64,000 nucleotides of DNA from Anaerolineae bacterium. GTDB taxonomy: Bacteria > Chloroflexota > Anaerolineae > DTPP01. The notes under the pieces were generated by a model that was not told the origin of the DNA, did not search any database, and saw only the letters and a program-made list of their open reading frames with translations. Made by a program: the position numbers and the translations under genes. Positions 43,898-58,462 of this stretch are shown here, in pieces (the first letter of the stretch is position 1; every line of letters begins with the position of its first letter). The DNA lies in contig JBMFPD010000001.1 of NCBI GenBank assembly GCA_049969295.1, positions 332 to 64,331 on the forward strand, in the 5' to 3' direction.

Positions 43898-43984
43898 ATC
43901 TTCTGAGCACCCCTCCCCCCGCCTCCTCCCCGCGTGCGGGGAGAGGGCCGGGGGAGGGGTTGGAAGGCGCACGGCCGTGCGCCG
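43898..43984. repeat. GC-rich hairpin repeat, family copy B, between the convergent genes prs and the M1 peptidase
   Basis: CTTCTGAGCACCCCTCCCCCC...GCGGGGAGAGGG...GGCGCACGGCCGTGCGCC (perfect 18-nt palindrome). Confidence 0.7.
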
Positions 43985-45559
43985 CTACTCGCCAGCCCTG
44001 CGGACGCCGTACAGCCATTCGTGGTAGAGGGGGGCCAGGTCCCGGCCCGCGAGGCCCTCAGCCACCCGCAGGAAGTCCTGTCCCCGGGCGATGCGGTAGC
44101 GGTACTGGGCCGCGTAGTGCCGCAGGACCGCCAGGAACGCCTCGTCGCCCACCGCGGTGCGCAGGGCGTCCAGGAAGAGCGCACCCTTCTGGTAGACGAT
44201 GACCCCGTAGTCCGCCCGGGGGAAGGCCCCTGAAGGCTGGGCCACGGCCGCATCCCGTCCCTCCCGCACCAGGTTCTCGTACCGCTGGCGGAAGGCTTCC
44301 AGGATGCCTTTCGCCTCCTCCGGGCCGTGCACGTGCTCGTAGTACAGGACGGTGCTGTAGTTGGCCAGGGCCTCGTCCAGCCAGGGCTCATCCACCTGGT
44401 CGTTGCCCACCAGGTTGTACCACCACTGGTGGGCCATCTCGTGGGCCACTACGAACTCGGTGAAGGGGTCCTCCCGCGCGTACAGGGCCTCGGCCGCCAG
44501 GATCAGGCCCGGGTACTCAATCCCTGCCGCGCCGATCTCCGCCTCCGCCAGGTCCAGTTCGCGGTAGGGGTAGGGGCCGAAGAGGTCCCCGTAGAGGCGG
44601 AAAGCCTGCCGCGCGTAGTCCAGCACCGCCTGTCCCATCGCCGCGTGTCCGGGGAAGTAGAAGGAGCGGAGGCGCGTCCCGGAGGGATCGTCCTCCGTGA
44701 CGATCTGGTAGTCCCGGCTCAGGGCCAGGTTGAACTCCCGCGCCGGGCCGCTCACCAGGGTCCAGACGTGCCGGCCCTCCCTCCCGGCCTCGTCCACCAC
44801 GCTCCCCGTGGACGCCAGGATGTACCCCTCCGGGGCCTCCCAGACCACGCGGTAGAAGGCCATGTCGCTGTAGACCATGTCCCCGTGCTCCGGAGGGATC
44901 TCCTCGTTCCAGCCCGTCTCGTCGTAGACGGCCACCAGGGGGTAGAAGCCAGCCAGGGTCCAGGTGCCCTGGTGGACCCCGAACGCGCCGTACCCGCGGC
45001 TGGGCTCGCTGGAGACCTCTGTGCGGAAGGAGAAGGTCAGGGCGAGGCCCTGGCCCGGCGACAGGGGCGAGGGGAGGGGCAGGCGGGCCACGCTCCCCTC
45101 CTGGCGCAACTCGGGCTGGACGGCGTGGCCATCCACCTCCACGGAGGCAAGGTGCAGGCCAGCGCCAGGGCCCATCAGGTTGGGGTAGAGGCGCAGGACC
45201 AGCATGTCCAGCGGCACCGACTCGGTGTTGGTGTACCAGATGGACGCTTGCCCGAGGATGACACGCTCATCTTCCACCAGGGTGGCCGTGATGGCGTATC
45301 GGGTGGCCTGGCCCAGGAGGTCCAGGTCTCCCTGGAAGGAGGGAAGGAGAGCGGCGGCCTGGTCCTCCCCCTGCACCGGAGGCGGAGCGCTGGGGATGGG
45401 CATCGGGGCAGAGGCCGTGGGGGTTGCCCGGGGCGTGGGCTCTGCCGGTCCCGTGCTCTGGCAGGCGGCTGTGGCAACGAGCAGCACCGCCCCCGCCAGG
45501 GCAAGGAGGGAGCGCGAAAGGATGATGGAGGAAGGTGGGTGCTGGCGGGCCTCCCTCAT
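43985..45559 (-). CDS. M1-family zinc aminopeptidase, secreted lipoprotein
   Basis: HEMAHQWW...E zinc-binding motif. The N-terminus MREARQHPPSSIILSRSLLALAGAVLLVATAAC is a signal peptide plus lipobox. The start overlaps the upstream stop in ATGA. Confidence 0.8.
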   Translation of the reverse strand: MREARQHPPSSIILSRSLLALAGAVLLVATAACQSTGPAEPTPRATPTASAPMPIPSAPPPVQGEDQAAALLPSFQGDLDLLGQATRYAITATLVEDERVILGQASIWYTNTESVPLDMLVLRLYPNLMGPGAGLHLASVEVDGHAVQPELRQEGSVARLPLPSPLSPGQGLALTFSFRTEVSSEPSRGYGAFGVHQGTWTLAGFYPLVAVYDETGWNEEIPPEHGDMVYSDMAFYRVVWEAPEGYILASTGSVVDEAGREGRHVWTLVSGPAREFNLALSRDYQIVTEDDPSGTRLRSFYFPGHAAMGQAVLDYARQAFRLYGDLFGPYPYRELDLAEAEIGAAGIEYPGLILAAEALYAREDPFTEFVVAHEMAHQWWYNLVGNDQVDEPWLDEALANYSTVLYYEHVHGPEEAKGILEAFRQRYENLVREGRDAAVAQPSGAFPRADYGVIVYQKGALFLDALRTAVGDEAFLAVLRHYAAQYRYRIARGQDFLRVAEGLAGRDLAPLYHEWLYGVRRAGE

Positions 45560-47649
45560 CGTCCGAAGGCCAACCCTTCTACCTGGACCCGCCACCGGAG
45601 GTCCAGCGCCAGGCTTTCCGTTGCCGCGCTTCCCCCTAGAGGCTCCACGCGGTAGGTGTAGTAGCCCCACTCCGTGGTGATGGGGGTCACGGCCGAGATG
45701 GCCAGCACGGCCTGGGTCACTTCCCGGCCCAGGCCCAGGAGGTCCAGGGAACCGCGGTTTTCGGCATCCAGGGGCATCTCTCGGACGCGGAGGTCGCCCC
45801 CGGCCCATTCCACCAGTTGCACGGCGAAGCCCTGAGGCACGAAGTTGGTGGAGCGCACGAAGCCCCGCGCCTCCCATGTGGGGTCTTCCTCCTCGGCGCC
45901 GTCGTGGAAGCCGATCTCCGGGATGGCGATGTCGTCCAGGGCCCAGCCCGTGGCGTGGTAGGCGTCGTCGGTCACGTACTCAAAGCGCAGGAGGATTTCC
46001 CTCCCGGCGTAGGGGGTGAGGTCCATGCGTTCGTCCACCCAGCGGGGCTCGTCCCCCTTGCGGCCGCCGCTCACGCCGGTGTAGCCCCAGCCGTAGTTGT
46101 TGCCCATGGGGTTCTTGTCGCTCATGTGGGCCCCTCGGAGAAGGGTCCAGGTTGCCCCGCCGTCGGTGGAGACGGCCACGTAGCCGAAGTCCCATCCGTC
46201 CTCAATCTGGTACCAGGTGCGGAAGGAGAGGGTGGCCTGGGAGACGCCCCGCAGGTCCACGGGCCGCGTGAGGGTGATGTCGCGCTGGTTCGCCCGCCCG
46301 GAATACCAGAAAGCCCGGCCCTCCGCGGGGAACGTCGGCACGAGCCTGGTGCGGGACGAGCCGTCAAAGCGGATCGTGAGGTCCACGGCTCCATCCCTGG
46401 GTGGGGCGAGGAGGAGGTAGTCGGTGCCGTACTGGTGGACGGTCCCTTCGCCGTGGGCCGGGTAGCGGGTGATGCGCCGGCCCACCCGGACCGTCCCGTG
46501 GCGGCGGGCATAGGAGACGCTGCCGAAGGGGAGCCTCCTCTGGTCTTCGCGCGGGACGATGTTGGCCATGGCCCACTGGCGGAAGAAGGTGTCGAAGTCC
46601 ACCCCCAGGCGCGAGAGCACGGCGTCGTACCCGGCGATGCCGGTGCGCGGGTCGGTGGCCAGGGCGCGCAGCGCCTCCTCGCCGAAGCGGTCGTAGAAGT
46701 AGGCTGCGAAGAGGTACGAGGCCCCGTAGTGCACGGGCGAGCGGCCCATCTCGTCGGTCCAGGCGTTCAGTTGGGTGTCGGGGAAGAGGTCAAAGACGAC
46801 CTCGGACCCATCGGTGGTGTAGCCGTTCAGGGTCATGGCCAGTTCCGAAAGGCCCTCCTCCACCCAGCCATCCTCGCCGCGGTTCTGGTTCCACTGGATC
46901 ATGTGCTGGAACTCGTGGGCCAGCACCGCGCTGTAGAGGTCCGTGCCTGGCGTCAGGGTGTCCAGGTTGACGTAGAAGATCTCCTTCTCGTTGGATTGGG
47001 GGTGGACGGCCCTGGGGACCTCGTCCACGCTGGAGAAGTACCCACCCACGCCCGGGACCCGGCCGTTGAAGATGTGCACCCGCGCCTCGCCATCTATGCC
47101 TGGCGACCACTCCGAGCCGAAGTAGCGCCGGTTCGTCTCGTAGATGGCGTCAAAGGCCATCCCCTGCCGCCGCAACTGGTCCTCGTCGGGGGGATCTCGC
47201 AGGTCCACCTGGACCCAGAAGTAGGCGTGCTGGGAGATGTAGCGCAGTTCGGCCTCGGCCTGGAAGAAGCGGGGCTGCTCGGGGCGGCTGTGGTCCACCA
47301 CCCAGAACGCCTCTCGGTCGCCGAGGGAGCGCTCCGGCGGTTCGGTGTGGGCTGGCCTGAGGGCCTCAGGGGGCACCCCCTTCAGGCGGCGGGCCAGGTC
47401 CCCCAGGTCGCGCACGGGCAGGTCCGCCGCCAGGGCCTGGGCCAGAGCCGCTTCGTCCTCAGGGGAGGGGGGCAGGTGCAGGTCGGGGATGGCCTTGGGG
47501 ACCCGTTCTGGGAGCAGGAAGGTGGCTTGCTCCCGCACGAGCCTGTACCCCGCGTACCCGCCGAGCCCCAGGCAGGCCACGAGGCACCCGCAGCAGGCGA
47601 GGATTGCCAGGGCGACAATGGTGAGCCAGCGTGGAGCAGGTTTTCGCAT
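45556..47649 (-). CDS. M6-family (immune inhibitor A-like) metalloprotease with an N-terminal membrane anchor
   Basis: HEFQHMIQW motif and an N-terminal hydrophobic segment. Confidence 0.75.
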   Translation of the reverse strand: MRKPAPRWLTIVALAILACCGCLVACLGLGGYAGYRLVREQATFLLPERVPKAIPDLHLPPSPEDEAALAQALAADLPVRDLGDLARRLKGVPPEALRPAHTEPPERSLGDREAFWVVDHSRPEQPRFFQAEAELRYISQHAYFWVQVDLRDPPDEDQLRRQGMAFDAIYETNRRYFGSEWSPGIDGEARVHIFNGRVPGVGGYFSSVDEVPRAVHPQSNEKEIFYVNLDTLTPGTDLYSAVLAHEFQHMIQWNQNRGEDGWVEEGLSELAMTLNGYTTDGSEVVFDLFPDTQLNAWTDEMGRSPVHYGASYLFAAYFYDRFGEEALRALATDPRTGIAGYDAVLSRLGVDFDTFFRQWAMANIVPREDQRRLPFGSVSYARRHGTVRVGRRITRYPAHGEGTVHQYGTDYLLLAPPRDGAVDLTIRFDGSSRTRLVPTFPAEGRAFWYSGRANQRDITLTRPVDLRGVSQATLSFRTWYQIEDGWDFGYVAVSTDGGATWTLLRGAHMSDKNPMGNNYGWGYTGVSGGRKGDEPRWVDERMDLTPYAGREILLRFEYVTDDAYHATGWALDDIAIPEIGFHDGAEEEDPTWEARGFVRSTNFVPQGFAVQLVEWAGGDLRVREMPLDAENRGSLDLLGLGREVTQAVLAISAVTPITTEWGYYTYRVEPLGGSAATESLALDLRWRVQVEGLAFGR

Positions 47650-47665
47650 GGCCGGTCTCCGCCCG

Positions 47666-48949
47666 TCAACTTTCCCGCCGGATGCGGGCCCCCAGGGCCT
47701 GCAACTTGAGGTCCACCCGCTCGTAGCCGCGGTCTATCTGGCCGATGTTGCGGATGACGCTCTCGCCCTCGGCGCACAGGCTGGCGATGAGGAGGGCCAT
47801 GCCGGCGCGGATGTCGGGGCTCTCCAGGCGCTCCCCGTGCAGGCGGGCTGGCCCCACCACCACCGCCCGGTGGGGGTCGCAGAGGATGATGCGCGCCCCC
47901 ATGGCGATCAGTTTGTCCACGAAGTAGAGGCGGCTCTCAAACATCTTCTCGTGGATGAGGACGGTCCCCCGCGCCTGCGTCGCCACCACCAGGGCGATGC
48001 TCATCATGTCGGCTGGGAAGGCGGGCCACGGGCCGTCGTCTATCTTGGGGATGGCCTGGAGCGCGTCGTCCACCACCCGCAGGTCCTGGCCGTCGGGCAC
48101 CACCACGTCGTCGCCGCGGACCTCCACACGGACCCCCAGGCGGCCCATCACCAGGTTGATCATGCGCAGGTTCTCCACCCCGGCGTCCTTGATGACGATC
48201 TCCCCGGGCGTGACGGCCCCCAGCCCGATGAAGGAGCCCACCTCAATGTGGTCCGGGGCGATGCGCCAGCGGGTCCCGTGGAGGCGGGGGACCCCGTGCA
48301 CCACCAGGGTGTTGGAGCCGATCCCCTCAATGCGCGCGCCCATCTGGTTGAGGACGCGGGCCAGGTCCTGGACGTGGGGCTCCGAGGCCGCGTTGCGGAG
48401 GACGGTGGTCCCCTCGGCCAGGACGGCCGCCATGAGCGCGTTCTCCGTCCCTGTGACGCTGGCCTCGTCCAGGAGGATGTCTGTCCCCCTGAGCCGTTCG
48501 GCGCGCATGGTGAGGGTGGAGCCGCCGTTCTCCTCCACTGTAGCGCCCAGGGCGCTCAGGGCCAGAAGGTGGGTGTCCAGCCGCCGCCGTCCGATGACAT
48601 CGCCTCCCGGCAGGGGCACCTGGACCTCCCCCTGCCGCGCCAGGAGGGGCCCCGCCAGGAGGATGGAGCCCCGGATCTGGCGGCACAGTTCCGGATCCAA
48701 CGGAGCCTGGCGCAGGCGGCGGGCCTGCAGGGTCAGCTGGTGGTCGCCCGTCTCCTCTACCTCCACGCCGAGCGCGCGCAGGAGCGCGCACATGGTCTCC
48801 ACGTCGCGGATCCTGGGGACGTTGTCCAGGACGAGGGGTTCGTCCGTCAGGAGCGAGGCGGCGAGCATCGGCAGGGCCGCGTTCTTGTTGCCGCTGGGGT
48901 ACACTGTTCCCTGGAGGGGATATCCTCCCTCAATGACAAAGCGTTCCAT
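47666..48949 (-). CDS. murA: UDP-N-acetylglucosamine 1-carboxyvinyltransferase
   Basis: 427 aa from [27 protein letters not shown]...; the track ORF has a 100-aa spurious extension. Confidence 0.9.
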
Positions 48950-48974
48950 GGCGCTAACCTTTCCACAACGCAGA

Positions 48975-49763
48975 TTACAGGACGGTCCGCCGGGCCACGA
49001 GGCGCGCCCCTCGTCCCAGGCCCAGCGTGCGGGCGGCGTGGCCGTTGCGCTGGGCCACCTCCACCCGACCGCTGGACCCCACGAGGGCCAGGAGCGCGCC
49101 CTCCGGCACCGCTCCGTAGGCCGGCTGGAGGCCCCGGAGCAGGTGCCCCGCCACCTCAAAGGTCCAGGCCTCCGGCGGGCCATCCAAGTCTTCCGCCCTG
49201 AGGTTCGTGATGCAGTTGCCGAACCGGTCCACGTGGAGCACCTCCGCAAGCCAGGTGCCAGGGCCCGCCGCCACAGGCTTCGGGAGGTCCAGGCGCACCG
49301 GATCGGAGATGCGGGGGCCCAGGGCTTCCAGGGGCACGCCCCGTGCCAGGTGTGCGGCCACGGGCGCGAAGAGATCCCGGCCGTGGAAGGTCCGGCTCAC
49401 CGGCTGGCGGAAGAACCGGCTCTCCGTCAGGTGGACGACGGCCTTCTCCCCCGGCAGGTCCAGGGCGGGGGTCAGCACGCCGTTGTCCGGGCCGACGAAG
49501 AGGGCCTGCTCCGTACGGACGGCGATGGGCCGGCGCTCCGTGCCGACGCCAGGGTCCACCACGACGAGGTGGATGGTCTGGGGTGGGAAGCAGGGCAGGA
49601 TGCCCTCCAGCAGGAGGGCTGCGTACAGCACGTCCTGGGGCGGCACCTGGTGCGAGACGTCCACGAGCACGGCATCGGGCGCCAGGCCCAGGATCACCCC
49701 CTTCATGGCCGCCACATAGGTGTCTTCCAGGCCGAAGTCAGTGGTGAGCGTCACGATCCGCAC
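48975..49763 (-). CDS. S-adenosyl-L-methionine hydrolase (adenosine-forming; DUF62 / fluorinase-chlorinase-like family)
   Basis: ..[27 protein letters not shown].. The GTG at 49763 follows GGGGGA; in-frame alternatives are at 49784 and 49811. Confidence 0.75.
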
Positions 49764-49859
49764 AGATGTTCCCCCCGGGGGCATTGTACCGCAGGCGGTG
49801 AGGGGCGTCAACCGGGCCGCGGCCCACCGCCCCCGGTTCCGCGCGCCCCTCCTGCCCCC

Positions 49860-52697
49860 TCACCTTTCACGCACTTCCACTGGCCCCAGAAGGGCACGGT
49901 CGCCCAGGGTCTGGCCGTCCTCGTCCACGGCGGGCAGCCGGGGCATCCCCGGGCGCTCGGCATCGTACCACCCCATTTCCAGGGAATAGACCCCGGCCTC
50001 GTCCGGGATCTGCAGGGCGTACTCCTCCGCCACCACCTCTGGCGGAAACCAGGTGTTGGTGGGCCTTGCTCCGCCCCCGGGGACGCGGTCCACACCCGCC
50101 CGGACCCGTCCGTCGGGGCCCAGGAGGTGCACGAAGGCGGTGTAGGAGCGGTCCATCTCCCCCACCGCCTGCCAGTAGAGGGTGACCGTCAGCACCCCGC
50201 CCGGCCGGGCCGGCCCCTGGTGCAAGTCCGCCCCCAGGAGGAGGATGCCCTCCCCGAACCGCACGCGCAGGGGCACCTGGGGCGAGGGGGGCGCGAACAC
50301 GCGCGCCGTGGGCAGGACCCGCACCGCGCCCAGGTCCAGAGGGGCAGGGGTGAGGGGCTGGCCCCCTTGTTCCACCCAAGCCTGCAGCCGGACCTCCCCT
50401 TCCTGGGCCTGCAGGGGGACCCGCACCCGGTGCCGCGTGCGGAAGGCGTGCCCCGGAGGCCAATCTCCAACCTCCCGGCCCGGGCCGGCCAGGGGCCGCG
50501 TCTCCTCAGCCAGCACCCTGCCTCCCTGCTCCCAGGCCAGGCGCAGGGCAAGGCCGGGCTCTGGCCGCCCCTGCACCTGCCAGAAGAGGGACGCCTCCAC
50601 GAAGGCCCCACCTTGTGCGGACGCGGGCTCCAGCCCTGCCCCCAGGAAGCGCAGGCCCCCCACGTCCGCCCGTGCGGGTGTGGGGATGGGGAGGCGTTCG
50701 GGCGCGAGGGCCCCCGCTTCTGGCCCTACCTCCATCGGGCCCACGCAGGCCTCCTTCCCCGCGGGCGCGCCGGCTGCATCCAGGACGTCCAGGCCGTCGG
50801 GGGCCTCGTCTGCGTAGACCTTGAGGCAGAGGGAGTAGGGGCCCGGTGGCGTGCCGGGCTCCGCCGGGAGCGCGTACTGGGCCAGGACCACCCTCCCCAC
50901 CTCCCAGCGGAAAGCGGGGTAGGTGAAGGCTGTGGGCCGGCGGTCCTCCCGCCCCCAGGCGAGGCCCTCCGCGTCCCGCAGCGTGAGCGCGACCGTCCAA
51001 TCGGCGGAGAGGGCTTCCTTCGCCCGCCAGTAGGCTGCCACGTGGCCTGGCCTCTCCTGGTCCCACCCCAGGAACTCCAGCCGCCCGCCGAAGTCCACCG
51101 CCACGGGGTGCTGGATGGCCGGCTCCAGGGGCACGGCGAACCCCTCTGGCAGGGCGTAGTGCCGCAGTCCTACGTGCCAGAAAGTCCGCCCCACAGGGAG
51201 GGGCTCGCCCCACCGCTCCAGCATGTAGGCCACCACGCCCGTGGGGTCCACCACCTCATCCTGCCAGAGGACCAGCCACGCACCCCGCTTGCCCGCGGTG
51301 GCCCGGTTCACGCTCTCCGCGGCCTCCCACCCCAGGGGGTGCCGGGCGTCCAAGATGCGCAGGGGTGGGATCGGCACGCGCCTGGAGCCCGGCCAGTAGA
51401 CATCCCACACGGGGGCCATGTGGCCCGACACGAGGAGGATGGCTTCGTCGGGGGCGGCGTGCTCCCGCACGAACTGAGCCACGCCCCGGAAGTCCGGCTT
51501 GGTGAAGGCCGGGTCGGCGTAGAGGTTCCGGTCGGCGTAGCCCGCAACCCCCAGGACGAAGGCCAGGCCGGCGGCGGCGACGGCCCTCGCCCAACCTTCT
51601 CCCGGCGCCCGCCCCTTCCCAGCGGCGGCTCCAGCGAGGAGGAGCAGCGCGCCCGGCGAGGCGACCATGGCGTAGCGGGGGTTGAACTTGGGCACACGGT
51701 AGGCCAGACCCAGGAGGAGGGCGACCGGCACGGCCCCGTAGAGGAGGGAGAACCCAAGGCCCCAGGCGTCTCCACGCCCCCTGGCGGCGCGCCAGGCCCA
51801 GATTCCCGCCGCCAGGGCCAGGACAGCCAGGTACGGGGTCAGGAGGCGCATCCCCTCCGCCTCCAGGATGGACTCGCCTCCCAGGAAGGCCAGGGCCACC
51901 TTGCGGGCCGCCTCGTCCAGTTTGAGGGTGCCGGGCCAGTAACTCGTATCCTCATGCCAGCGCTGCACCAGGAAGGGCAGCCAGGGGAGGTAGATCGCGA
52001 CCACCGCGGCCACCGCGCCCAGCGCCTGCCAGAGTTGCCCCGCGCGGGCAAACGTCGCAGGGACGACGCGTGCGTCGCCCCTCCTGCCCGCCAGGCCCCA
52101 GGCCAGGGCGAAGCAGGCGTGGAAGGCCAGGACGAAGAAGGCGAAGTAGTGGGTGTAGACGGCCGCCCCCATCAGGGCCACATAGGGGAGCCAGGCGCGC
52201 CAGGCCCTGGCCCTGCCTTCCCGAAGGCAGGCCCAGAAGAGGCCGCTTGCCGCCAGGCAGAGGAGGGTGACCCAGGTGTAGTTGCGCGCCTCCTGCGCGT
52301 ACCACAAGTGCAGGGGGGAGACCGCCCCCAGGAGGGCCGCCAGGAGGCCCGCCCCGCGGGAGCCAGCCACGCGCCGGCCGACCCAGGCCAGGCAGGGCAC
52401 GAGGAGCACCCCGGCGAAGGCCGAGGGGAAACGCAGCGCGAACTCCCCCGCGCCGGCCAGGCGGACCCAGCCCCACACGGCGTAGTAGTAGAGGGGCGGC
52501 TGGATGTCGTCGGCGGTCCAGGCGGTGAGGTCTGGCAGGGAAAGAGTGGCGAGGTAGGCGGTCACGCCCTCGTCGTACCAGAGGCTCTGCGCCTCCAGGC
52601 GGTACATACGCAGGGCGAAGGCCAGAAGGCACAGGGCCAGGAGGGCCGCCGTCCAGAACCGGCCGTGCGCCCGCGAGGCCCCATCTTGCCGGGTCAT
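49860..52697 (-). CDS. GT-C fold glycosyltransferase (GT39/GT83 PMT/ArnT-like) with a large C-terminal tandem-repeat domain
   Basis: Multi-pass N-terminus with the DE motif (LWYDEGV). 945 aa from MTRQDGASRAHGRFW.... The start overlaps the upstream stop in ATGA. Confidence 0.75.
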   Translation of the reverse strand: MTRQDGASRAHGRFWTAALLALCLLAFALRMYRLEAQSLWYDEGVTAYLATLSLPDLTAWTADDIQPPLYYYAVWGWVRLAGAGEFALRFPSAFAGVLLVPCLAWVGRRVAGSRGAGLLAALLGAVSPLHLWYAQEARNYTWVTLLCLAASGLFWACLREGRARAWRAWLPYVALMGAAVYTHYFAFFVLAFHACFALAWGLAGRRGDARVVPATFARAGQLWQALGAVAAVVAIYLPWLPFLVQRWHEDTSYWPGTLKLDEAARKVALAFLGGESILEAEGMRLLTPYLAVLALAAGIWAWRAARGRGDAWGLGFSLLYGAVPVALLLGLAYRVPKFNPRYAMVASPGALLLLAGAAAGKGRAPGEGWARAVAAAGLAFVLGVAGYADRNLYADPAFTKPDFRGVAQFVREHAAPDEAILLVSGHMAPVWDVYWPGSRRVPIPPLRILDARHPLGWEAAESVNRATAGKRGAWLVLWQDEVVDPTGVVAYMLERWGEPLPVGRTFWHVGLRHYALPEGFAVPLEPAIQHPVAVDFGGRLEFLGWDQERPGHVAAYWRAKEALSADWTVALTLRDAEGLAWGREDRRPTAFTYPAFRWEVGRVVLAQYALPAEPGTPPGPYSLCLKVYADEAPDGLDVLDAAGAPAGKEACVGPMEVGPEAGALAPERLPIPTPARADVGGLRFLGAGLEPASAQGGAFVEASLFWQVQGRPEPGLALRLAWEQGGRVLAEETRPLAGPGREVGDWPPGHAFRTRHRVRVPLQAQEGEVRLQAWVEQGGQPLTPAPLDLGAVRVLPTARVFAPPSPQVPLRVRFGEGILLLGADLHQGPARPGGVLTVTLYWQAVGEMDRSYTAFVHLLGPDGRVRAGVDRVPGGGARPTNTWFPPEVVAEEYALQIPDEAGVYSLEMGWYDAERPGMPRLPAVDEDGQTLGDRALLGPVEVRER

Positions 52698-55141
52698 CGT
52701 CCGCCCCCTCCAGGGGATGCAAGGTCCAGTTCCCACTCCAGGTGGTCCGAGGGCCCCTCCTGCCCCGGCTCCTGGGCCGGGAGCCGCTCGCCCGTCTCCC
52801 ACCAGTACCAGCCGACCCACACCCGGTAGGGTGGCCGGTCCAGGGCATCCGGCAGAGGCAGCCGGCGCACGTCCTTGACCACCTCGCCTGGCCGCCAGGT
52901 GCTGGTGGGCACCGGTCCATCCCAGTTCGGCTGGGCATCGCTCTGAGAGACCCGCTCGCCCTCCCCGTCCAGGAGGTGGACGAAGGCCGTGTAGTCCCGG
53001 TCCGGCGCCGCCAGGGCCTGCCAGTAGAGGGTGAGGAGGAGCGTCCGGCCCTTGCCCTCCCGGACCACCCCAAGGTCGTACCCCAGAAGCCGGACCAGCC
53101 CCCCGAACTCCCCCCGCAGGGGGTGGTCCGGTGTCAACTTCGTGTCGGGCGGCACCAGGTGCAGGCGTCCCCCCGTCCGTGCAAACCGATGCAGGCGTAT
53201 CCAGGTGCCGCCGTCATAAAGACGCCAGGGGTAGTCCGCCTGTTCCACTTCCACAGGCAGGCGGCGCCATCCCGCAGCCCAATCTCCCTCCTCCACGACA
53301 CCCACCGCCACCGTGAACCAGTCCCCCAGGTCCCAGGGGACCGTGTCCACCATGACCACTTCGCCGAGCCGCCAGCGGCTGGTAGGGTACCAGAGGAGGG
53401 CCGCCAGGGGACGCTGGGTGGTATCCTCCACCACATCCCCCTCCCGGTTGAGGAAGAAGGGATAGAGGCGCAGGTCCTCCTCCAGGGGTTCCAGGGCCTG
53501 CCAGTACATGCGCAAGGACGTGAGGCGCCACCTGGGCTGGTCCACCAGGTCGAACCCCAGGAGGCGCAGGCGGCCGCCGAAGGTGATGGAAAGGGGGTAC
53601 TGGGGCGCGGGGTTGGGCGCTCGCAGGAAGTCGTAGAAGGCGTCCGGGAGGGTGTGGCGGCAGTCGGCCTGGCCCGCAGCCCGGGCAAGCAGAAGGTACC
53701 CGTCCGCGGCGTCCTGCACGCAGAAATCCTTCCTCAGAAGGCCCATCACGGCCTGGTGGAAGTCGTTGGGGTGCATGTCGGTGGTGGAGGCCGCATCCAC
53801 CAGGACGTAGTCGGCGTCCAGGACCACCGGGAAGTCGTAGATAACCTCCCGGTGGCTCAGGTGCGGGTTGAGGGGCGGCGTGGTGGAAAGGCGTGCCTCC
53901 GGGGGGATCTGCGCCGCGAAGCGGGCGAGGAGGCGGTGGTGCGGCGTCACCTCCGGCCAGGCCACCTCAGGGTTCAGGGGGGTGAAGCCCCACATCCGCT
54001 GCGCCAGGAGGCACCAAGCCAGGAGCCACGCGCACACACCCCCGAGGACCCGGGAGCGCGGCCAAGAGGTCCAGGCTGCCACCCTCCGCACGCACCAGGC
54101 CGCGCCGGTGATGGCCCCGGCCACGGCGAAGGGGACGACGAGGGCCGAGTAGTGGTACTCGCCGGAGTACATGGCCGGGTAGTCGGCCAGGAGGTTGGCC
54201 GCCAGGATCGGTGCGGCCAGGGCCAGTTCCAGAGGGCCGAGGACCGGGAAGAAGCCCACCGGGGCCAGGATGCGCGCCCAGTAGGCCAGCCGGTCTTCTG
54301 TGACGAGGAGCGCGAGCACCTCCCCTGGCTTCGTCGCCAGGGCCTGGAGGATGCCCCCGAGCCCGCCGCCCAGGTGCGCGTAGCGCTTGAAGTAAATGGA
54401 CCCTTCCGCCGCCACAGGGCCGTAGAACTGGCGACTGGAGTGGGCGATGATGCCGAAGGTGGCCACGGCAAACCAGGCAAGGCCGGCCGCGGCCACCGCG
54501 GCCCCGGCCTTCCGGTCCCGCACGACGAAGAAGAGGTACAGCCCCAGCATGAAGACCACCAGGGCCACCTCTTCCTTGACCGTGAGGCTCAGGAAGGTGA
54601 AGAGGGCGAGCCACCCGTGCCGCCGCCCCTCGCCGAAGTATAGGGCCGCGAGGAGCAGGGGCACCGCCAGGGGGCTGGCGTGGAACTCCGTCAGGTTGGC
54701 AGCCTGGAGCGCGGGGAAAAGCAGGTACGATACGGCGAAGGCGAGCCCCGCCCTCCGGCTCCCGAGGCGCTTCCGGGCCCAGGCGTAGACCGGCACCGCC
54801 CCCAGCGCCAGGACGACCGTCTGCAGCCAGAGGAGGCTCGTCACGTCGTCGTGGAGGAGGAAGACCAGGGATATCAGGAGGAAGATGGGCTCAAAGTGGT
54901 CCGTGAGGCGGGAACTCTGGCGGCCGTCGTGGCGCGTCTCCTGGACGAACCGTCCGTGCAGCGTGTTCCAGATGGGCTGGTCCATGTTGCCCAGGTCCGA
55001 GGTGTGGGTCTGGAAGGCCTCGTGCTTGCGCACCGAGAAGGCCCCGAAGTAACCCACGTACAGGGCCATGCACAGGAGGAGGACCAGGGAGGCCCAGAGG
55101 TCCCGGGAGGGCCTCCAGGCTGACTGGGGACGGGGGGTCAT
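52694..55141 (-). CDS. DUF2079-like polytopic membrane protein with a C-terminal repeat domain homologous to that of the adjacent GT-C protein
   Basis: 815 aa from MTPRPQSAWRPSRDLWASLVLLL...; the C-terminal repeats read ..FGGxLRLLGxDL..LYWQAL..DYTAFVHLL... Overlaps both neighbours in ATGA. Confidence 0.65.
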   Translation of the reverse strand: MTPRPQSAWRPSRDLWASLVLLLCMALYVGYFGAFSVRKHEAFQTHTSDLGNMDQPIWNTLHGRFVQETRHDGRQSSRLTDHFEPIFLLISLVFLLHDDVTSLLWLQTVVLALGAVPVYAWARKRLGSRRAGLAFAVSYLLFPALQAANLTEFHASPLAVPLLLAALYFGEGRRHGWLALFTFLSLTVKEEVALVVFMLGLYLFFVVRDRKAGAAVAAAGLAWFAVATFGIIAHSSRQFYGPVAAEGSIYFKRYAHLGGGLGGILQALATKPGEVLALLVTEDRLAYWARILAPVGFFPVLGPLELALAAPILAANLLADYPAMYSGEYHYSALVVPFAVAGAITGAAWCVRRVAAWTSWPRSRVLGGVCAWLLAWCLLAQRMWGFTPLNPEVAWPEVTPHHRLLARFAAQIPPEARLSTTPPLNPHLSHREVIYDFPVVLDADYVLVDAASTTDMHPNDFHQAVMGLLRKDFCVQDAADGYLLLARAAGQADCRHTLPDAFYDFLRAPNPAPQYPLSITFGGRLRLLGFDLVDQPRWRLTSLRMYWQALEPLEEDLRLYPFFLNREGDVVEDTTQRPLAALLWYPTSRWRLGEVVMVDTVPWDLGDWFTVAVGVVEEGDWAAGWRRLPVEVEQADYPWRLYDGGTWIRLHRFARTGGRLHLVPPDTKLTPDHPLRGEFGGLVRLLGYDLGVVREGKGRTLLLTLYWQALAAPDRDYTAFVHLLDGEGERVSQSDAQPNWDGPVPTSTWRPGEVVKDVRRLPLPDALDRPPYRVWVGWYWWETGERLPAQEPGQEGPSDHLEWELDLASPGGGGR

Positions 55142-56106
55142 TCGTCCGACCGCCTCTTGGCCAGGTCCCGCACAGCGCGCTCCAGTTCCTCCAGGCGGTC
55201 CTGCTGGCTCACCACCAGTTCCGCCAGGAACCCGATGAGGAAGAGGAGGAGCCCGGCCAGGACCAGGACGCCAGCGAAGATGAAGATGGGCCTCTGCTGC
55301 TTGCCCAGGGAGAGCCACAGCCCCAGCAGGTACAGGTACAGCGCGCCCCCTACCAGGAAGCACAGGAGCCCCAGGGAGCCGAAGAAGAGCATCGGTTTGC
55401 GGCTGAAGGTCAGCAAAAACTTCACGACCAGCACGTCCAGGAAGGAGACAGGGATGCGCAGGACCCCGAACTTGGACTTCCCCCGGCGGCGCGGGTAGTA
55501 GTTGACCTGCACCTCGCCCACCCGGTACCCTTTGGAAGCGGCGATCATCAGGACGAAGCGGTGCCAGTCGGAGCGCAGGGGAAGGAGGTCCTCCACCACC
55601 TCGCGGCGGAAGGCCTTGATCCAGTTCATGTCGTGGGCCTGCACCTGGAAGAGCCAGCGGGAGACGGCGTTGTAGATGCGGGAGGCGAGGACCTTGCCGT
55701 CCCGACGGCCCTGCCGCCAGCCAGCCACCACGTCGTACCCTTCCTCCAACTTGGCCAGGAGTTTGGGGATGTCCTCGCGGGGGTCCGACTCCATGTCCGC
55801 CGGGAGGAGCATCACCACCTCGCCCCGGGCCGCCCGGAAGCCGGTCTCCAGCGCCTCCGTCAGGCCCAGGTTGCGCCGGTGGGTCAGGACCCGTACGAAG
55901 GGATGGCGCTGGGCGGCAGCCGCGGCTTCCTCAGCCGTGCCGTCGGTGGAGCCGTCGTCCACCAGGACCAGTTCCCCTTCCACCCCCAGGGCGGCGAAGG
56001 CCTGGGCCACGGCCTCCACCACCTCTCCCACGTTCCCGGCCTCGTTGTAGGCTGGGACCACCACGCTCACCCGCGGCCGCTCCTTCAGCGAAGGCTTCCC
56101 GTCCAT
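55138..56106 (-). CDS. GT2 polyprenyl-phosphate glycosyltransferase (ArnC/DPM1-like) with a C-terminal membrane anchor
   Basis: ..VSVVVPAYNEAGN..VLVDDGSTDGT.. with two C-terminal TM helices. Confidence 0.8.
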   Translation of the reverse strand: MDGKPSLKERPRVSVVVPAYNEAGNVGEVVEAVAQAFAALGVEGELVLVDDGSTDGTAEEAAAAAQRHPFVRVLTHRRNLGLTEALETGFRAARGEVVMLLPADMESDPREDIPKLLAKLEEGYDVVAGWRQGRRDGKVLASRIYNAVSRWLFQVQAHDMNWIKAFRREVVEDLLPLRSDWHRFVLMIAASKGYRVGEVQVNYYPRRRGKSKFGVLRIPVSFLDVLVVKFLLTFSRKPMLFFGSLGLLCFLVGGALYLYLLGLWLSLGKQQRPIFIFAGVLVLAGLLLFLIGFLAELVVSQQDRLEELERAVRDLAKRRSDE

Positions 56107-56110
56107 CTCC

Positions 56111-57238
56111 CTACCGACCTCCTCCCCCGACCGCCTCCAGCGCCTCGGCCAGGACCGCGACCACCCGCTCCATCTGAGCCTGCGTCAGTTCCGGGTACAT
56201 GGGCAGGGAGAGGACCTCCCGCGCCGCTCGCTCCGCCTCGGGGAAGTCCCCTTCCCGGTAGCCCAGGTCCCTGTAGACTGGCTGCAGGTGCAGGGGGATG
56301 GGGTAGTGGATGCCCACGCCGATGCCCCGCTCCCGCATGTAAGCGAAGACCCGGTCCCGCGCTGGCACCCGCACCATGTAGAGGTGGTAGACAGAACGCG
56401 CGCCCGGCAACTCCTGGGGCAGGCCCACGCCCAGGGGCCGCAGGAGCCGGGCGTAGTCCGCCGCGTGGGCCCGCCGCTCCTCGTTCCAGGCGTGCAGGTG
56501 GGGGAGTTTCGCCCGCAGGATCGCCGCCTGGAGCGCATCCAGGCGGTAGCCGTAGCCAATGACGAGGTGCTCGTACTTGCTGCGGCGGCCGTGGTCCCGC
56601 AGGAGGCGCGCCTGGTCGGCGTAGTCGTCCCGGTCCGTGGCCAGCGCGCCCCCGTCCCCGTAGCAGCCCAGGTTCTTGCCAGGGTAGAAACTGAAGCAGG
56701 CCAGGTCGCCGAAGGTTCCCACCGGCCGCCCTTTGTACGCGGCACCGTGGGCCTGGGCGGCGTCCTCAATGACCGGGAGGCCGTGCCGCCGCGCGATCTC
56801 CAGGATGGGGTCCATGTCGGCGGGCTGGCCTGCCAGGTGCACGGCGATGACCGCCCGGGTGCGGGGGGTAATGGCCGCTTCCAGTTTCGCCGGGTCCATG
56901 TTGTAGGTGCGGGGGTCCACGTCCACGAAGACCGGTCTTGCCCCCACCAGGGAGACGGCCTCCGCCGTGGCGATAAAGGTGTAGGTGGTGGTGACCACTT
57001 CATCGCCCGGGCCCACGCCGAGGATGCGCAGGGCCAGGTGCAACGCCGCCGTCCCCGAATCCACGCCGACGACGTGCCGCACGCCGCAGAAGGCAGCGAA
57101 CTCCTCCTCAAAGGCCGCCACCTCCGGCCCCAGGATGAAGTTCGCCCCATCAATGCACCGCTGGATGGCGGCGTCAATTTCGTCTTTGATGCGCAGATAC
57201 TGCGCCTTCAGGTCTACCAGAGGGATGGAATCTGCCAT
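56111..57238 (-). CDS. DegT/DnrJ/EryC1/ArnB-family PLP-dependent sugar aminotransferase
   Basis: 375 aa of the DegT family (..ILGPEVAAFEEEFAAF..; PLP-lysine region ..FSFYPGKNLG..). Confidence 0.85.
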   Translation of the reverse strand: MADSIPLVDLKAQYLRIKDEIDAAIQRCIDGANFILGPEVAAFEEEFAAFCGVRHVVGVDSGTAALHLALRILGVGPGDEVVTTTYTFIATAEAVSLVGARPVFVDVDPRTYNMDPAKLEAAITPRTRAVIAVHLAGQPADMDPILEIARRHGLPVIEDAAQAHGAAYKGRPVGTFGDLACFSFYPGKNLGCYGDGGALATDRDDYADQARLLRDHGRRSKYEHLVIGYGYRLDALQAAILRAKLPHLHAWNEERRAHAADYARLLRPLGVGLPQELPGARSVYHLYMVRVPARDRVFAYMRERGIGVGIHYPIPLHLQPVYRDLGYREGDFPEAERAAREVLSLPMYPELTQAQMERVVAVLAEALEAVGGGGR

Positions 57239-57254
57239 GTCGTGCTCCTTGACA

Positions 57255-57336
57255 GACCTCCCCCCTACCCCCTATGGGGGATGGGGAGAGGTCATGCTCC
57301 AACCTCACCCCTACCCCCGTGGGGGATAGGGTGAGG
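57255..57336. repeat. Two tandem near-perfect GC hairpins (GACCTCCCCCCTACCCCC...GGGGGATGGGGAGAGGTC and ACCTCACCCCTACCCCC...GGGGATAGGGTGAGGT) between the CinA-like ORF and the DegT gene
   Basis: Read directly from the sequence. Likely a terminator or processing structure on the minus-strand transcript. Confidence 0.6.
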
Positions 57337-57744
57337 TCACTTCTCCACAACCGACTGGTACAGGGATGCCATCTCGTCGGCGATGCGCTCCCAGGCGAAC
57401 TTCTGAGCCACGTGCTGGAACCCATCCTCGCCCAACCGCCGGGCCAGGGCTGGGTCGTCCAGCACCCGCTCCAGGGCCTGGGCCAGGGCCTGGAGGGTCA
57501 TATCGTCTGCCGTGGGCCCCAGGCCCCCCGTGGTGAAGACCACCCGCGCCTTGCGCTGGATGGCCCCCAAGACCTCCCGGCCGATGGCCTCTATGTCATC
57601 GCGGACCATCACCGCCCGCTGCACCACGCCCCCCAGCCCCGTCACCCGGCGGCAGAGCCAGTGGGTGTTGGTGTCCAGGACGTCGCCGATCAAGAGTTCG
57701 TTGCCGATGGCTACGATCTCCACTGGGGTCCCCTGCGGGTCCAC
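57337..57744 (-). CDS. Chimeric 135-aa ORF: CinA-like molybdopterin-binding N-terminal domain (truncated, ~93 aa) fused in frame to a GT4-glycosyltransferase C-terminal tail
   Basis: N-terminal ..EIVAIGNELLIGDVLDTNTHWL..FTTGGLGPTADDMT..; C-terminal ..LDDPALARRLGEDGFQHVAQKFAWERIADEMASLYQ.. GTG start with the RBS GGAAGGAGG. Confidence 0.5.
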   Translation of the reverse strand: MDPQGTPVEIVAIGNELLIGDVLDTNTHWLCRRVTGLGGVVQRAVMVRDDIEAIGREVLGAIQRKARVVFTTGGLGPTADDMTLQALAQALERVLDDPALARRLGEDGFQHVAQKFAWERIADEMASLYQSVVEK

Positions 57745-57837: not shown

Positions 57838-58260
57838 TCACGAGTCCACGGGCCGCACGCCGTGGTAGACGCGAGGCCCGCCGATGGTCTGCAGGATGAG
57901 TTCAGGCGTCCGCCGTCCCAGGATCTGGTGGAGTTCCCGTGGCGAAAGAGGTGTGTTGCCGTTGGCCAGGAAGATGCGGAAGACCGCCGTGGCCAGAGGG
58001 GTGTGCTCGGTGATGTAGTCGGGCTTCCCGCGGCAGCAGGTCATCAGGGACTGCCACAGGGCATCCACCTGCCGTACCTCCGCCGTCTCCGGGTCCACCC
58101 AGTCTACCAACTGGGCCTCTCTGTGGTCGGGGTACTTCGCCCGGCACTCCTCGCACAACTGGCCGTGCAGTTCCAGGCGGAAGTCCCGCTTCTGCTTCTC
58201 CCACCAGCCAAAGTCAATATGGAACTTGGTATCCAGAGTGGGCTTGATCCACTTTGCCAT
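57838..58260 (-). CDS. Hypothetical protein (140 aa)
   Basis: MAKWIKPTLDTKFHIDFGWWEK... The 62 N-terminal codons of track ORF 57838..58446 are a translation of repeat C and were removed. Confidence 0.5.
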   Translation of the reverse strand: MAKWIKPTLDTKFHIDFGWWEKQKRDFRLELHGQLCEECRAKYPDHREAQLVDWVDPETAEVRQVDALWQSLMTCCRGKPDYITEHTPLATAVFRIFLANGNTPLSPRELHQILGRRTPELILQTIGGPRVYHGVRPVDS

Positions 58261-58295
58261 CAATCTTCGCCTCGCTCGGACTATTGCTCGACCAC

Positions 58296-58405
58296 GGAGG
58301 ATTCTGACAATACGCTCTTCTGAGCACCCCTCCCCCAGCCCCCTCCCCGCACGCGGGGAGGGGGCCCAGGGGGTGGGGTTGGAAGGCGCACGGCCGTGCG
58401 CCCCT
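58296..58405. repeat. GC-rich hairpin repeat, family copy C
   Basis: GAGGATTCTGACAATA...CTGAGCACCCCTCCCCCAGCCCCCTCCCCGCACGCGGGGAGGGGGCCCAGGGGGTGGGGTTGGAAGGCGCACGGCCGTGCGCC; closely matches copy A. Confidence 0.7.
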
Positions 58406-58462
58406 ACCTCTCCGTCGCCTTGGCCAGAACGACGTATCGTCAACAACCAGTGTGGCGTAGTA

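Follow-up and report, generated by a model that had tools for sequence, protein, structure and literature searches.

The window, a stretch of 64,000 nt from an Anaerolineae bacterium, carries a run of eight genes on its minus strand between positions 43985 and 57238, and all eight open reading frames were found in the order given by the original prediction. They are listed here in the direction of transcription, the first four belonging to what we call block A and the last four to block B:

56111-57238, minus strand: block A gene 1, DegT-family PLP sugar aminotransferase, 375 aa (Pfam DegT_DnrJ_EryC1, 434 bits)
55138-56106, minus strand: block A gene 2, GT2 polyprenyl-phosphate glycosyltransferase with C-terminal TM helices, 322 aa (Pfam Glycos_transf_2, 107 bits)
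52694-55141, minus strand: block A gene 3, DUF2079 protein, 815 aa (Pfam DUF2079, 222.7 bits)
49860-52697, minus strand: block A gene 4, PMT_2/ArnT-like GT-C glycosyltransferase, 945 aa (Pfam PMT_2, 39.4 bits)
48975-49763 from the GTG codon (ORF 48975-49811), minus strand: block B gene 1, SAM hydroxide adenosyltransferase/(R)-SAM hydrolase (DUF62; Pfam SAM_HAT_N and SAM_HAT_C)
47666-48949, minus strand: block B gene 2, murA, 427 aa (Pfam EPSP_synthase; TIGR01072, 495.7 bits)
45556-47649, minus strand: block B gene 3, membrane-anchored HExxH metalloprotease with an InhA-like MAM domain, 697 aa (PF20773, 114 bits)
43985-45559, minus strand: block B gene 4, M1-family metallopeptidase with a lipoprotein-type signal, 524 aa (PF01433, 77.5 bits)

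GC3 is 0.89-0.92 across the eight frames. The three ATGA start/stop overlaps (GT2/DUF2079, DUF2079/GT-C and protease/M1) were read directly in the sequence; the short gaps measure 4, 48, 25 and 16 nt (4-48 nt overall). The 48-nt gap separates the GT-C and SAM hydrolase genes and widens to 96 nt if the latter begins at the GTG codon at 49763, its likely start because the Pfam profile begins only at residue 20 of the TTG-initiated frame.

Pfam and NCBIfam profile searches supported nearly all of the family assignments first proposed, with the exception of the M6 protease. No match to the Peptidase_M6 catalytic domain was obtained for this protein at E ≤ 0.01; its InhA-like MAM domain is what matches, together with weak matches to Peptidase_MA_2 and MXAN_6640 HExxH, and the M6 label is not supported. 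Among the other block B products, the SAM hydrolase scores 213 bits against the NCBIfam (R)-SAM hydrolase model (cut-off 350), MurA exceeds the TIGR01072 equivalog cut-off of 392.7 bits and is an Asp-type variant in which D replaces the catalytic Cys in the alignment to solved MurA, and the M1 peptidase, well above the PF01433 threshold of 27.7, shows directly readable HEMAHQWW and HExxH-x18-E motifs and a lipobox (..VATAAC).

The run had been predicted to be one functional 13-kb unit joining glycosylation to murA, SAM hydrolysis and proteases, a reading for which an internal promoter was itself named as contrary evidence. The features that bear on this are the following:

49819-49866, no strand assigned: synteny breakpoint between blocks A and B (block A colinearity stops at 49867, block B colinearity at 49818)
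49783-49811, minus strand: sigma-70-type promoter-like site TTGACG-17 nt-TACAAT, with the SAM hydrolase GTG codon 19 nt further downstream
57239-57336, minus strand: two GC-rich hairpins in tandem, followed at once by the ribosome-binding site AAGGAG of DegT (RNA fold -65 kcal/mol, z -4.8)
43909-43988, no strand assigned: double-hairpin repeat element in the interval that separates M1 from the convergent prs, close behind the M1 stop (fold -67.6 kcal/mol, z -5.3)

Block A (49867-57491, comprising a GT4 remnant and the DegT, GT2, DUF2079 and PMT_2 GT-C genes) is colinear at the DNA level with the relatives L001, L004 and L005 at 84-88% identity, and the genes downstream of it in these relatives all differ, being a histidine kinase, Fer4/ABC genes or CHU_C-GT2-GT2. 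Block B (43999-49818, comprising the SAM hydrolase, murA, metalloprotease and M1 peptidase genes) has colinear counterparts in L089, L090 and L091 (88-90% identity), where the genes upstream of it are unrelated and in many cases run the other way. Synteny breaks at the junction and each block occurs without the other in relatives at 84-90% DNA identity, which argues against the single functional unit. The neighbourhood comparison likewise did not bear out a conserved gene order, as the two blocks were never adjacent in L001-L007, in L089-L091 or in 80 DUF2079 loci, and murA, SAM_HAT, protease and M1 genes were found near DUF2079 in none of these 80 species-level loci. Since the four-gene core of block A has other flanks in each genome, even where DNA identity reaches 88%, it may behave as a portable cassette.

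A conserved promoter-like site also stands at the head of block B. It is the sole promoter-like match in the 16 kb scanned, and both hexamers and their spacing are identical in four genomes (the window, L089, L090 and L091), while the DNA upstream of ccggTTGACG is unrelated among the four, so that block B homology begins at the motif; in L089 and L091 the gene upstream of the site lies on the other strand. The call is computational and combines a consensus match with conservation; promoters of Chloroflexota are poorly characterised. Taken with the synteny, the site suggests that block B is a unit in its own right, whose conservation extends only to about genus level and which is putatively driven by its own promoter.

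We regard it as highly improbable that all eight genes form one co-regulated operon for cell-surface remodelling, in which glycosylation, murA, SAM hydrolysis and secreted proteases would act together. Such an operon would fit the single strand, the short gaps and the three ATGA overlaps; no terminator or significant RNA structure was found at 49819-49866 (fold z -0.96), and physical co-transcription through the GT-C/SAM_HAT junction is thus possible; and strong hairpin elements flank the whole run at 43909-43988 and 58326-58407. Against this stand the position of the junction at a synteny breakpoint, with near relatives carrying either half alone, the lack of block B genes in all 80 DUF2079 loci, the perfectly conserved promoter-like element, and the ATGA overlaps themselves, which all stay inside the blocks and never span the junction. 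We therefore consider it rather probable that two independent units have come to lie side by side in this lineage to give the 13-kb run, namely an extracytoplasmic amino-sugar glycosylation module and a block B with its own promoter. Read-through from block A into block B is possible and would be incidental.

The element at 58326-58407 is a second copy of the double hairpin found 3' of M1, a 23-nt core being identical in both (0 matches expected by chance). The double-hairpin element belongs to repeat families D5, I1 and I7. As for the tandem hairpins 5' of DegT, the equivalent position in relatives also holds a hairpin, though its sequence is another one, and the structure could act as a terminator or insulator, or as a 5' stabiliser.

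Directly upstream of these hairpins lies one further open reading frame:

57337-57744, minus strand: chimeric cinA'::'GT4 remnant ORF, 135 aa (Pfam MoCF_biosynth and a weak Glyco_trans_1_2 match)

Its first ~84 codons are cinA-like, with a GGLGPTADD motif and a match to positions 1-96 of 144 of MoCF_biosynth, and its last ~51 codons, joined in frame, are the C-terminal end of the cluster GT4. The Glyco_trans_1_2 match to this end is weak; by tblastn the C-terminus of the L004 GT4 is 72% identical to 57534-57340, and colinearity with L001 and L004 stops at 57491, inside the chimeric frame. Intact Hexapep-GT4 genes precede DegT in L001, L002, L004 and L006. The Pfam and tblastn matches and these intact GT4 genes confirm the earlier proposal that the chimera is the remnant of a further glycosyltransferase gene of the cluster. 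A deletion would have removed the hexapeptide N-acyltransferase and GT4 genes of the ancestral cluster and left the cinA'::'GT4 fusion behind. With these two genes, which most relatives have, missing here, the block A pathway may be altered or incomplete.

The same deletion, which took two genes of the cluster and perhaps its native promoter too, raises the question of whether block A has lost its function here and is decaying. The chimeric remnant, the loss of Hexapep and GT4 compared with L001, L002, L004 and L006, and the fact that flippase and dehydrogenase genes were not found nearby all agree with decay, which we nevertheless hold to be quite unlikely: the four frames are intact, their ATGA coupling is kept, and dN/dS is 0.04-0.27 over the four genes (0.12 for DegT, 0.04-0.13 for GT2), indicating purifying selection, this being an average over the whole divergence and not only over the time since the deletion. 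Moreover, L005 also carries DegT-GT2-DUF2079-GT-C without Hexapep-GT4, behind a different upstream gene, and this bare four-gene core therefore suggests that the core is viable alone.

Considering the block A proteins one by one, the closest solved relatives of DegT are the C3-aminotransferases DesV, QdtB and WbpE (344-385 bits, WbpE 344), compared with 115-257 bits for the C4 enzymes Per, ArnB, PglE and PseC (ArnB 235). DegT reaches no NCBIfam equivalog cut-off, the ArnB model NF008658 giving 259 against 631. These scores favour amination at C3 rather than C4, with the proviso that similarity alone is not a reliable guide to regiospecificity. In the distant cluster L087 a UDP-GlcNAc-3-dehydrogenase-like GFO_IDH_MocA gene is followed by Hexapep and then DegT, and L010, L013, L014 and L043 have this GFO gene too; no dehydrogenase that would make the keto sugar was found in the 64-kb window.

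Over its full length (residues 11-298) the GT2 enzyme matches ArnC (117 bits), GtrB sll0501 (78 bits) and Dol-P-Man synthase (DPMS). Its best NCBIfam matches are ArnC, PgfS and AglJ, all under their cut-offs (ArnC model NF007986, 121 against 529), and there is a weak PpgS match (48 bits). As judged from these matches, it is a predicted membrane-anchored polyprenyl-phosphate glycosyltransferase of the ArnC/GtrB type.

The two membrane proteins that follow form a pair. DUF2079 (PF09852; residues 39-451, gathering threshold 28.2) had been placed in the position of a flippase, a role that its fold does not support, as its N-terminal membrane domain has a GT-C fold, the rest of the protein comprising an alpha/beta domain and a pair of beta-sandwiches, with AftA, AftB, AftD and EmbA among the fold matches. 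Residues D49 and D54, a motif of catalytic type, are conserved in at least 90% of sequences; they come right behind TM1 (residues 13-41), in the first extracytoplasmic loop. DUF2079 is thus a member of the GT-C superfamily by its membrane fold and a predicted polyprenyl-P(P)-sugar transferase; a full-text literature search returned no characterised member of the family. Its partner exceeds the PMT_2 cut-off of 26.1 and carries an invariant W40-Y41-D42-E43 motif, with D42-E43, located in loop 1 and likewise of catalytic type, invariant in 32 sequences. Its AF2 model (pLDDT 88.1) gave Foldseek matches to STT3, ArnT and Pmt4, the best superposition being on ArnT (TM 0.57), and three beta-sandwich domains extend its C-terminus. 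The C-terminal repeats of the two proteins are 44% identical, and the structural matches of the beta-sandwiches include carbohydrate-binding domains of Wzt and sugar-binding domains of GH2 enzymes. A C-terminal CBM of a GT-C enzyme that binds the acceptor polysaccharide has precedent (PMC11127046).

Because both GT-Cs bear homologous tandem CBM-like beta-sandwiches, an envelope polysaccharide is the likeliest acceptor. We think it unlikely that block A instead glycosylates secreted or membrane proteins in Ser/Thr-rich regions, by PMT-like O-glycosylation or in the manner of PgfS/PgfM: PMT proper (PF02366) scores 19 in the PMT_2 protein, below its cut-off of 22.7, MIR domains are absent, and the tandem beta-sandwiches resemble carbohydrate-binding domains as they occur in the glycan-modifying EmbC, AftD and GT136 (PMC11127046).

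The association of these genes recurs in Anaerolineae. In 22 of 55 loci DUF2079 has a GT-C gene downstream, and a GT2 orthologue of at least 55% identity lies upstream in 15 of 47, with GT4 in 17 and DegT in 9 of the same number. Synteny and family assignments together uphold the claim that the first four genes are a conserved polyprenyl-phosphate-linked amino-sugar glycosylation module ending in GT-C transferases. In more distant relatives the cluster also includes a flippase-like gene, identified by Pfam as PF03706; it adjoins DUF2079 in 21 of 67 Anaerolineae loci, and DUF2079-PF03706 fusions exist. No PF03706 homologue or other flippase gene was found in the locus or in the whole 64-kb window, and there is no small GtrA-like gene among the eight.

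What the data show directly are gene families, folds, synteny breakpoints, the conserved promoter-like motif and purifying selection; from these we infer the transcript structure and, for block A, a route in four steps with its sugar, lipid carrier, flipping and acceptor. DegT would aminate a keto nucleotide-sugar, the likeliest substrate being a 3-keto sugar derived from UDP-GlcNAc, aminated at C3 and supplied by a Gfo/Idh/MocA dehydrogenase encoded elsewhere. The ArnC/GtrB-type GT2 would then load the sugar onto polyprenyl phosphate at the cytoplasmic face, and the lipid-linked sugar would be flipped, the candidate flippase in many relatives being the PF03706 protein beside or fused to DUF2079. 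Finally, the translationally coupled DUF2079 and ArnT/PMT-like GT-Cs would pass the sugar to the acceptor outside the membrane.

The first four genes had been likened to the ArnB-to-ArnT logic of a 4-amino sugar, and a stricter form of that idea would have block A attach a 4-amino-4-deoxy-pentose of the L-Ara4N type to undecaprenyl phosphate and move it to a membrane lipid or glycolipid, lowering surface charge. ArnC is the best solved relative and the best NCBIfam match of GT2, the PMT_2 protein superposes best on ArnT, and ArnB is among the DegT matches. We nonetheless judge this quite improbable, as DegT scores far higher against the C3-aminotransferases than the 235 bits of ArnB, DegT and GT2 fall far short of the equivalog cut-offs for ArnB and ArnC, ArnA, ArnD and ArnE/F-type genes are absent from the cluster here and in relatives, the relatives carry a hexapeptide acyltransferase, GT4 and in some cases a 3-dehydrogenase-like gene instead, and the large CBM-like extensions of both GT-Cs point to a polymer acceptor.

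In summary, block A is probably a polyprenyl-phosphate amino-sugar glycosylation module that decorates an envelope glycan, a variant of known multi-component systems. As a more tentative proposal, DUF2079 could be the founding GT-C family of a Chloroflexota-wide envelope-decoration system, in which a PF03706 flippase would feed polyprenyl-P-(3-amino)hexosamine to the DUF2079/ArnT-like pair and this pair would dock, through the shared tandem CBM-like domains, on an undescribed wall polysaccharide of Anaerolineae.

Among known systems, the Arn (Pmr) pathway to lipid A L-Ara4N shares with block A the order aminotransferase, polyprenyl-P GT2 and GT-C, and among solved structures its ArnC comes closest to GT2 and its ArnT to the PMT_2 protein. 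Block A differs from it by the additional GT-C (DUF2079) and the large beta-sandwich extensions, by a DegT nearer to C3-aminotransferases than to ArnB, by the missing ArnA, ArnD and ArnE/F, and by scores below the equivalog cut-offs. The Chloroflexota host lineage is not known to have lipid A, and the absence of a lipid A pathway, part of the original prediction, is plausible given the Anaerolineae affiliation. The WbpB/WbpE/WbpD (WlbA/C/B) and GnnA/GnnB routes to UDP-GlcNAc3N(Ac) resemble the Gfo/Idh/MocA, DegT and hexapeptide triad of L087, L010, L014 and L043; the window holds the aminotransferase alone of this triad, and its product would go onto polyprenyl phosphate via GT2, unlike in those routes, which use a Leloir GT or LpxA. 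A GT2-made polyprenyl-P-amino-sugar with which a GT-C decorates a wall polysaccharide is also found in the galactosamine decoration of mycobacterial arabinogalactan by PpgS (Rv3631) and Rv3779, and the Emb/Aft arabinosyltransferases, with their CBM-type periplasmic domains, are fold matches of DUF2079. Sequence similarity to these mycobacterial proteins is very low, sugar chemistry and phylum are different, and the arabinogalactan context is absent.

Multi-component transmembrane glycosylation has been described for GtrA/GtrB/GtrX (O-antigen glucosylation), CsbB/GtcA/YfhO (LTA/WTA), GacI/GacL and PPPRS/MATE/GT136 (PMC8035078, PMC7389260, PMC11127046). Unlike systems of the Gtr/CsbB-YfhO type, block A has two tandem, coupled GT-Cs, one of them DUF2079, rather than one, includes a dedicated sugar aminotransferase, and has as its candidate flippase PF03706, absent from this locus, rather than GtrA/GtcA or MATE. 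It shares with them a cytoplasmic GT2 with C-terminal TM helices, an extracytoplasmic GT-C and, in its relatives, a flippase-like partner (PF03706), while the CBM-like C-terminal domain of its GT-C is a likeness to GT136, EmbC and AftD.

Eight minus-strand genes with a strong coding signal (GC3 0.89-0.92) were modelled between 43985 and 57238:

56111-57238, minus strand, DegT aminotransferase
55138-56106, minus strand, GT2 glycosyltransferase
52694-55141, minus strand, DUF2079 protein
49860-52697, minus strand, PMT_2-type GT-C (membrane glycosyltransferase fold)
48975-49811 as an ORF, minus strand, SAM_HAT (DUF62)
47666-48949, minus strand, murA
45556-47649, minus strand, HExxH protease
43985-45559, minus strand, M1 peptidase

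ORF models and direct reading of the junctions confirmed the tightly packed run described in the original prediction: ATGA stop/start overlaps join GT2 to DUF2079, DUF2079 to the GT-C gene and the protease to M1, and the other junctions have gaps of 4, 48, 25 and 16 nt. Pfam and NCBIfam searches confirmed the predicted families of all eight genes but one, the protease called M6, which matched an InhA-like MAM domain (PF20773) and gave no match to an M6 catalytic domain in either database.

This run had been read as one functional 13-kb operon. We compared its DNA with the loci of close DUF2079 homologues and found that 49867-57491 (block A) forms a single colinear segment, with 84% identity to locus L001 and 88% to L004 and L005, which begins 5 nt past the GT-C stop codon and terminates within a chimeric ORF upstream of DegT. 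The genes 3' of the GT-C gene in these relatives are unlike those of the window: a histidine kinase followed by an M1 peptidase in L001, ferredoxin and ABC transporter genes in L004, and CHU_C-GT2-GT2-HNH in L002 and L006. Scanning with the protease gene recovered three contigs (L089-L091) colinear with 43999-49818 (block B) at 88-90% identity, which carry SAM_HAT-murA-protease(-M1) and no block A genes; upstream they have unrelated genes, which two of the three contigs carry on the opposite strand. One assembly contains both L005 and L090, as separate contigs, and the GT-C gene is absent from the 3.2 kb upstream of the L090 SAM hydrolase. The murA, SAM_HAT, protease and M1 genes were found in none of the 80 species-level genome loci with a DUF2079 homologue. 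Because the two blocks occur apart in relatives, the junction at 49819-49866 is a rearrangement breakpoint specific to the window's lineage, and the split falls exactly at the largest gap of the run.

The same junction holds TTGACG-17 nt-TACAAT at 49811-49783, the only sigma-70-like site within 16 kb. The site and the nominal TTG start of the SAM hydrolase ORF overlap. In this ORF the SAM_HAT Pfam profile starts at residue 20 and a GTG at 49763 is preceded by GGGGGGAA; with a start at this GTG, the true gap between the GT-C and SAM hydrolase genes would be 96 nt. The window, L089, L090 and L091 agree fully in the two hexamers and in the spacer length, and the similarity in this alignment sets in exactly at 'ccggTTGACG', with all sequence upstream being unrelated. 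Since the upstream gene is divergent in two of these contigs, block B must have its own promoter there, for which the conserved site is the obvious candidate. No terminator and no significant structure (fold z -0.96) was detected from the GT-C stop codon to this site, so read-through from block A is possible; a terminator scan of all gene junctions found no intrinsic terminator, its two hits both lying within genes. The original prediction named internal promoters splitting the unit as evidence against it, and a promoter-like site, found by computation only, now divides the run together with the synteny breakpoint. A single functional operon is thus not supported, and nothing evident ties the block B genes functionally to block A; tight same-strand packing and ATGA overlaps were in this case no indicator of one functional unit.

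The first block B gene encodes a SAM hydroxide adenosyltransferase/(R)-SAM hydrolase. The second is a bona fide murA, above its equivalog cut-off (496 vs 393 bits), and alignment of its product places Asp where the E. coli type has the catalytic, fosfomycin-targeted Cys (plpggDvig vs lpggCaig), which we take to be the naturally fosfomycin-insensitive type of Mycobacterium and Chlamydia. The HExxH protease is membrane-anchored, the M1 gene product is a lipoprotein, and the pair is probably co-translated through its ATGA overlap. The protease motif HEFQH...EGLSE looks gluzincin-like; the protein weakly matches Peptidase_MA_2 and the HExxH family MXAN_6640, and metagenomes contain many homologues at 33-48% identity. 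The other block B genes were not found beside the distant protease homologues (at most 48% identity); block B is kept only among near relatives.

Block A recurs more widely, and its reading as a glycosylation module is supported. Its core in the close relatives L001, L002, L004 and L006 is Hexapep-GT4-DegT-GT2-DUF2079-PMT_2, of which L005 has the last four genes only, with a different gene upstream; the class-wide order is [GFO_IDH_MocA]-[Hexapep]-DegT-GT2-GT4-[PF03706]-DUF2079-PMT_2. When only loci with sufficient flank were counted, a GT-C gene lay downstream of DUF2079 in 22 of 55 and PF03706 adjoined it in 21 of 67, while GT4 (17/47), a GT2 orthologue of at least 55% identity (15/47) and DegT (9/47) were found around it; these frequencies are partial because several genomes carry multiple DUF2079 paralogues. 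PF03706 (LPG_synthase_TM, flippase-like) is fused to some DUF2079 proteins. Such fusions of about 1200 aa and tandem DUF2079 arrays of up to three paralogues were seen in some Anaerolineae/Caldilineae genomes (loci L068, L081 and L082; proteins P0057, P0059, P0078, P0100, P0112 and P0117). Nearly all homologues of the DUF2079 and GT-C proteins belong to MAGs of Anaerolineae or other Chloroflexota, and a GT-C protein with 100% identity is labelled as from an Anaerolineae MAG. Purifying selection acts on all four block A genes, whose dN/dS lies at 0.04-0.27 in comparison with L004 and L005.

The window has lost Hexapep and most of GT4 by deletion, and what is left, the last ~51 GT4 codons, is joined in frame to ~84 cinA codons. 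The resulting ORF of 135 aa (57337-57744) has the GT4 C-terminal tail behind the N-terminal two-thirds of MoCF_biosynth (CinA); it had been correctly taken for a remnant of the cluster's own glycosyltransferase gene, which relatives keep intact. Two coding-like ORFs (58463-60085 and 57838-58446) lie directly upstream of this remnant on the same strand. Between the remnant and DegT, at 57239-57336, a tandem pair of GC-rich hairpins (-65 kcal/mol, z -4.8) directly precedes the DegT Shine-Dalgarno; relatives have a hairpin of other sequence at the same place, including L005 despite its different upstream gene. Scans found no Rfam families or tRNAs in the window, and no known riboswitch or RNA in Rfam accounts for these hairpins.

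A mobile element as explanation for the cassette-like behaviour of block A is not supported, as no transposase or integrase adjoins it in the listed loci. The sole flanking repeats are two direct copies of a double-hairpin element of about 80 nt (43909-43988 and 58326-58407), which enclose both blocks and not block A alone. They share an identical 23-nt core, TGGAAGGCGCACGGCCGTGCGCC, for which zero matches are expected by chance, and fold at -67.6 and -70.1 kcal/mol (z -5.3 and -4.5). Each is located immediately 3' of a minus-strand stop codon; as a pair they enclose the whole 14.4-kb run, and they look REP-like or (bidirectional) terminator-like.

Outside the run, the window is made up of core chromosome; features noted there are:

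1-23000, str/S10/spc/alpha ribosomal protein operons (EF-G, EF-Tu, SecY, RpoA, TruA)
28994-31552, second EF-G paralogue
34483-41924, aromatic amino-acid biosynthesis cluster (chorismate mutase, DAHP synthase, prephenate dehydrogenase, chorismate synthase)
40125-41924, shikimate kinase-dehydroquinate synthase fusion, in the aromatic cluster
58463-60085, 57838-58446, 60687-61511 and 37166-38275, coding-like ORFs without a Pfam family (GC3 0.83-0.89)

The ribosomal operons are the probable cause of the positive GC and AT skew that holds steadily over the first 23 kb. GC is unusually high at 36-42 kb (0.72-0.74), and prs is convergent with the M1 gene.

The original prediction likened the first genes of the run to the Arn pathway, with a 4-amino sugar as product. 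DegT scored higher against C3-aminotransferases (DesV 379 bits, QdtB 356, WbpE 344) than against C4 enzymes (perosamine synthase 257, ArnB 235, PglE 127, PseC 115), which places it nearer the former by sequence and does not support the analogy. A Gfo/Idh/MocA gene lies beside Hexapep-DegT in five fetched loci, among which L013 and L087 are the same contig, and its best NCBIfam match is UDP-GlcNAc 3-dehydrogenase. Because of the C3 similarity and this 3-dehydrogenase-like neighbour, we infer that a WbpB/E/D or GnnA/B type of route, leading to GlcNAc3N(Ac), is a better fit than ArnB. GT2 reached no NCBIfam equivalog cut-off and aligns end to end, C-terminal membrane helices included, with ArnC (117 bits), GtrB sll0501 (78) and Dol-P-Man synthase (69), in agreement with its predicted membership of the polyprenyl-phosphate class.

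PDB sequence searches returned nothing for DUF2079 and noise alone for the PMT_2 protein; structure prediction and fold search were therefore applied. The AlphaFold model of DUF2079 (pLDDT 89.8, pTM 0.83) has a GT-C membrane fold and Foldseek concurs. Two nearly invariant acidic residues, D49 and D54, lie just past TM1, the location of the catalytic carboxylates of GT-C enzymes. The fold rules out the flippase role suggested for DUF2079, and the model points instead to a probable GT-C glycosyltransferase. The PMT_2 protein, which matches STT3, ArnT (TM 0.57) and Pmt4 in Foldseek and has an invariant WYDE motif, is likewise predicted to be a GT-C. In both, the membrane domain is followed by an alpha/beta domain and then by beta-sandwiches in tandem, of which DUF2079 has two, at residues ~510-805, and the PMT_2 protein three, at ~505-945; the last repeats are 44% identical between the two. 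CBMs are found on the polysaccharide-decorating GT-Cs EmbC, AftD and GT136, and that of GT136 binds the acceptor polysaccharide (PMC11127046). As the CBM-like domains of block A resemble these, a glycan is favoured as its acceptor. In the literature collection covered, full-text searches found no paper mentioning the DUF2079 family and none on a Chloroflexi GT-C with undecaprenyl.

In the mechanism that we propose, a keto nucleotide-sugar made elsewhere in the genome would be aminated by DegT, probably at C3, and in relatives N-acylated by the hexapeptide transferase, a step that the window's genome may not perform. GT2 would load the sugar onto polyprenyl phosphate and the lipid-linked sugar would be flipped, PF03706 being the candidate flippase in relatives; no flippase gene was found in the 64-kb window. 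Outside the membrane, the products of the two translationally coupled genes, DUF2079 and the ArnT-like GT-C, would then pass the sugar on to an acceptor to which their CBM-like domains bind. Anaerolineae are filamentous bacteria, for the most part uncultured, that abound in sludge, sediments and hot springs, and to our knowledge their envelope chemistry is almost unknown. The conserved module (DegT, polyprenyl-P GT2, often GT4 and PF03706, DUF2079, ArnT-like GT-C) would supply testable candidates for envelope-glycan decoration as a defined Anaerolineae cassette, and DUF2079, a Pfam domain of unknown function, would gain a probable role as a GT-C glycosyltransferase.

Multi-component transmembrane glycosylation is a known scheme, represented by Gtr, CsbB/GtcA/YfhO and GT136 (PMC8035078, PMC7389260, PMC11127046), and block A overall would follow it. 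It differs from these systems in its Arn-like amino-sugar front end, in having two putative GT-Cs where the known systems have one, in drawing one of them from the uncharacterised family DUF2079, and in the candidate flippase of relatives, which belongs to a different family (PF03706).
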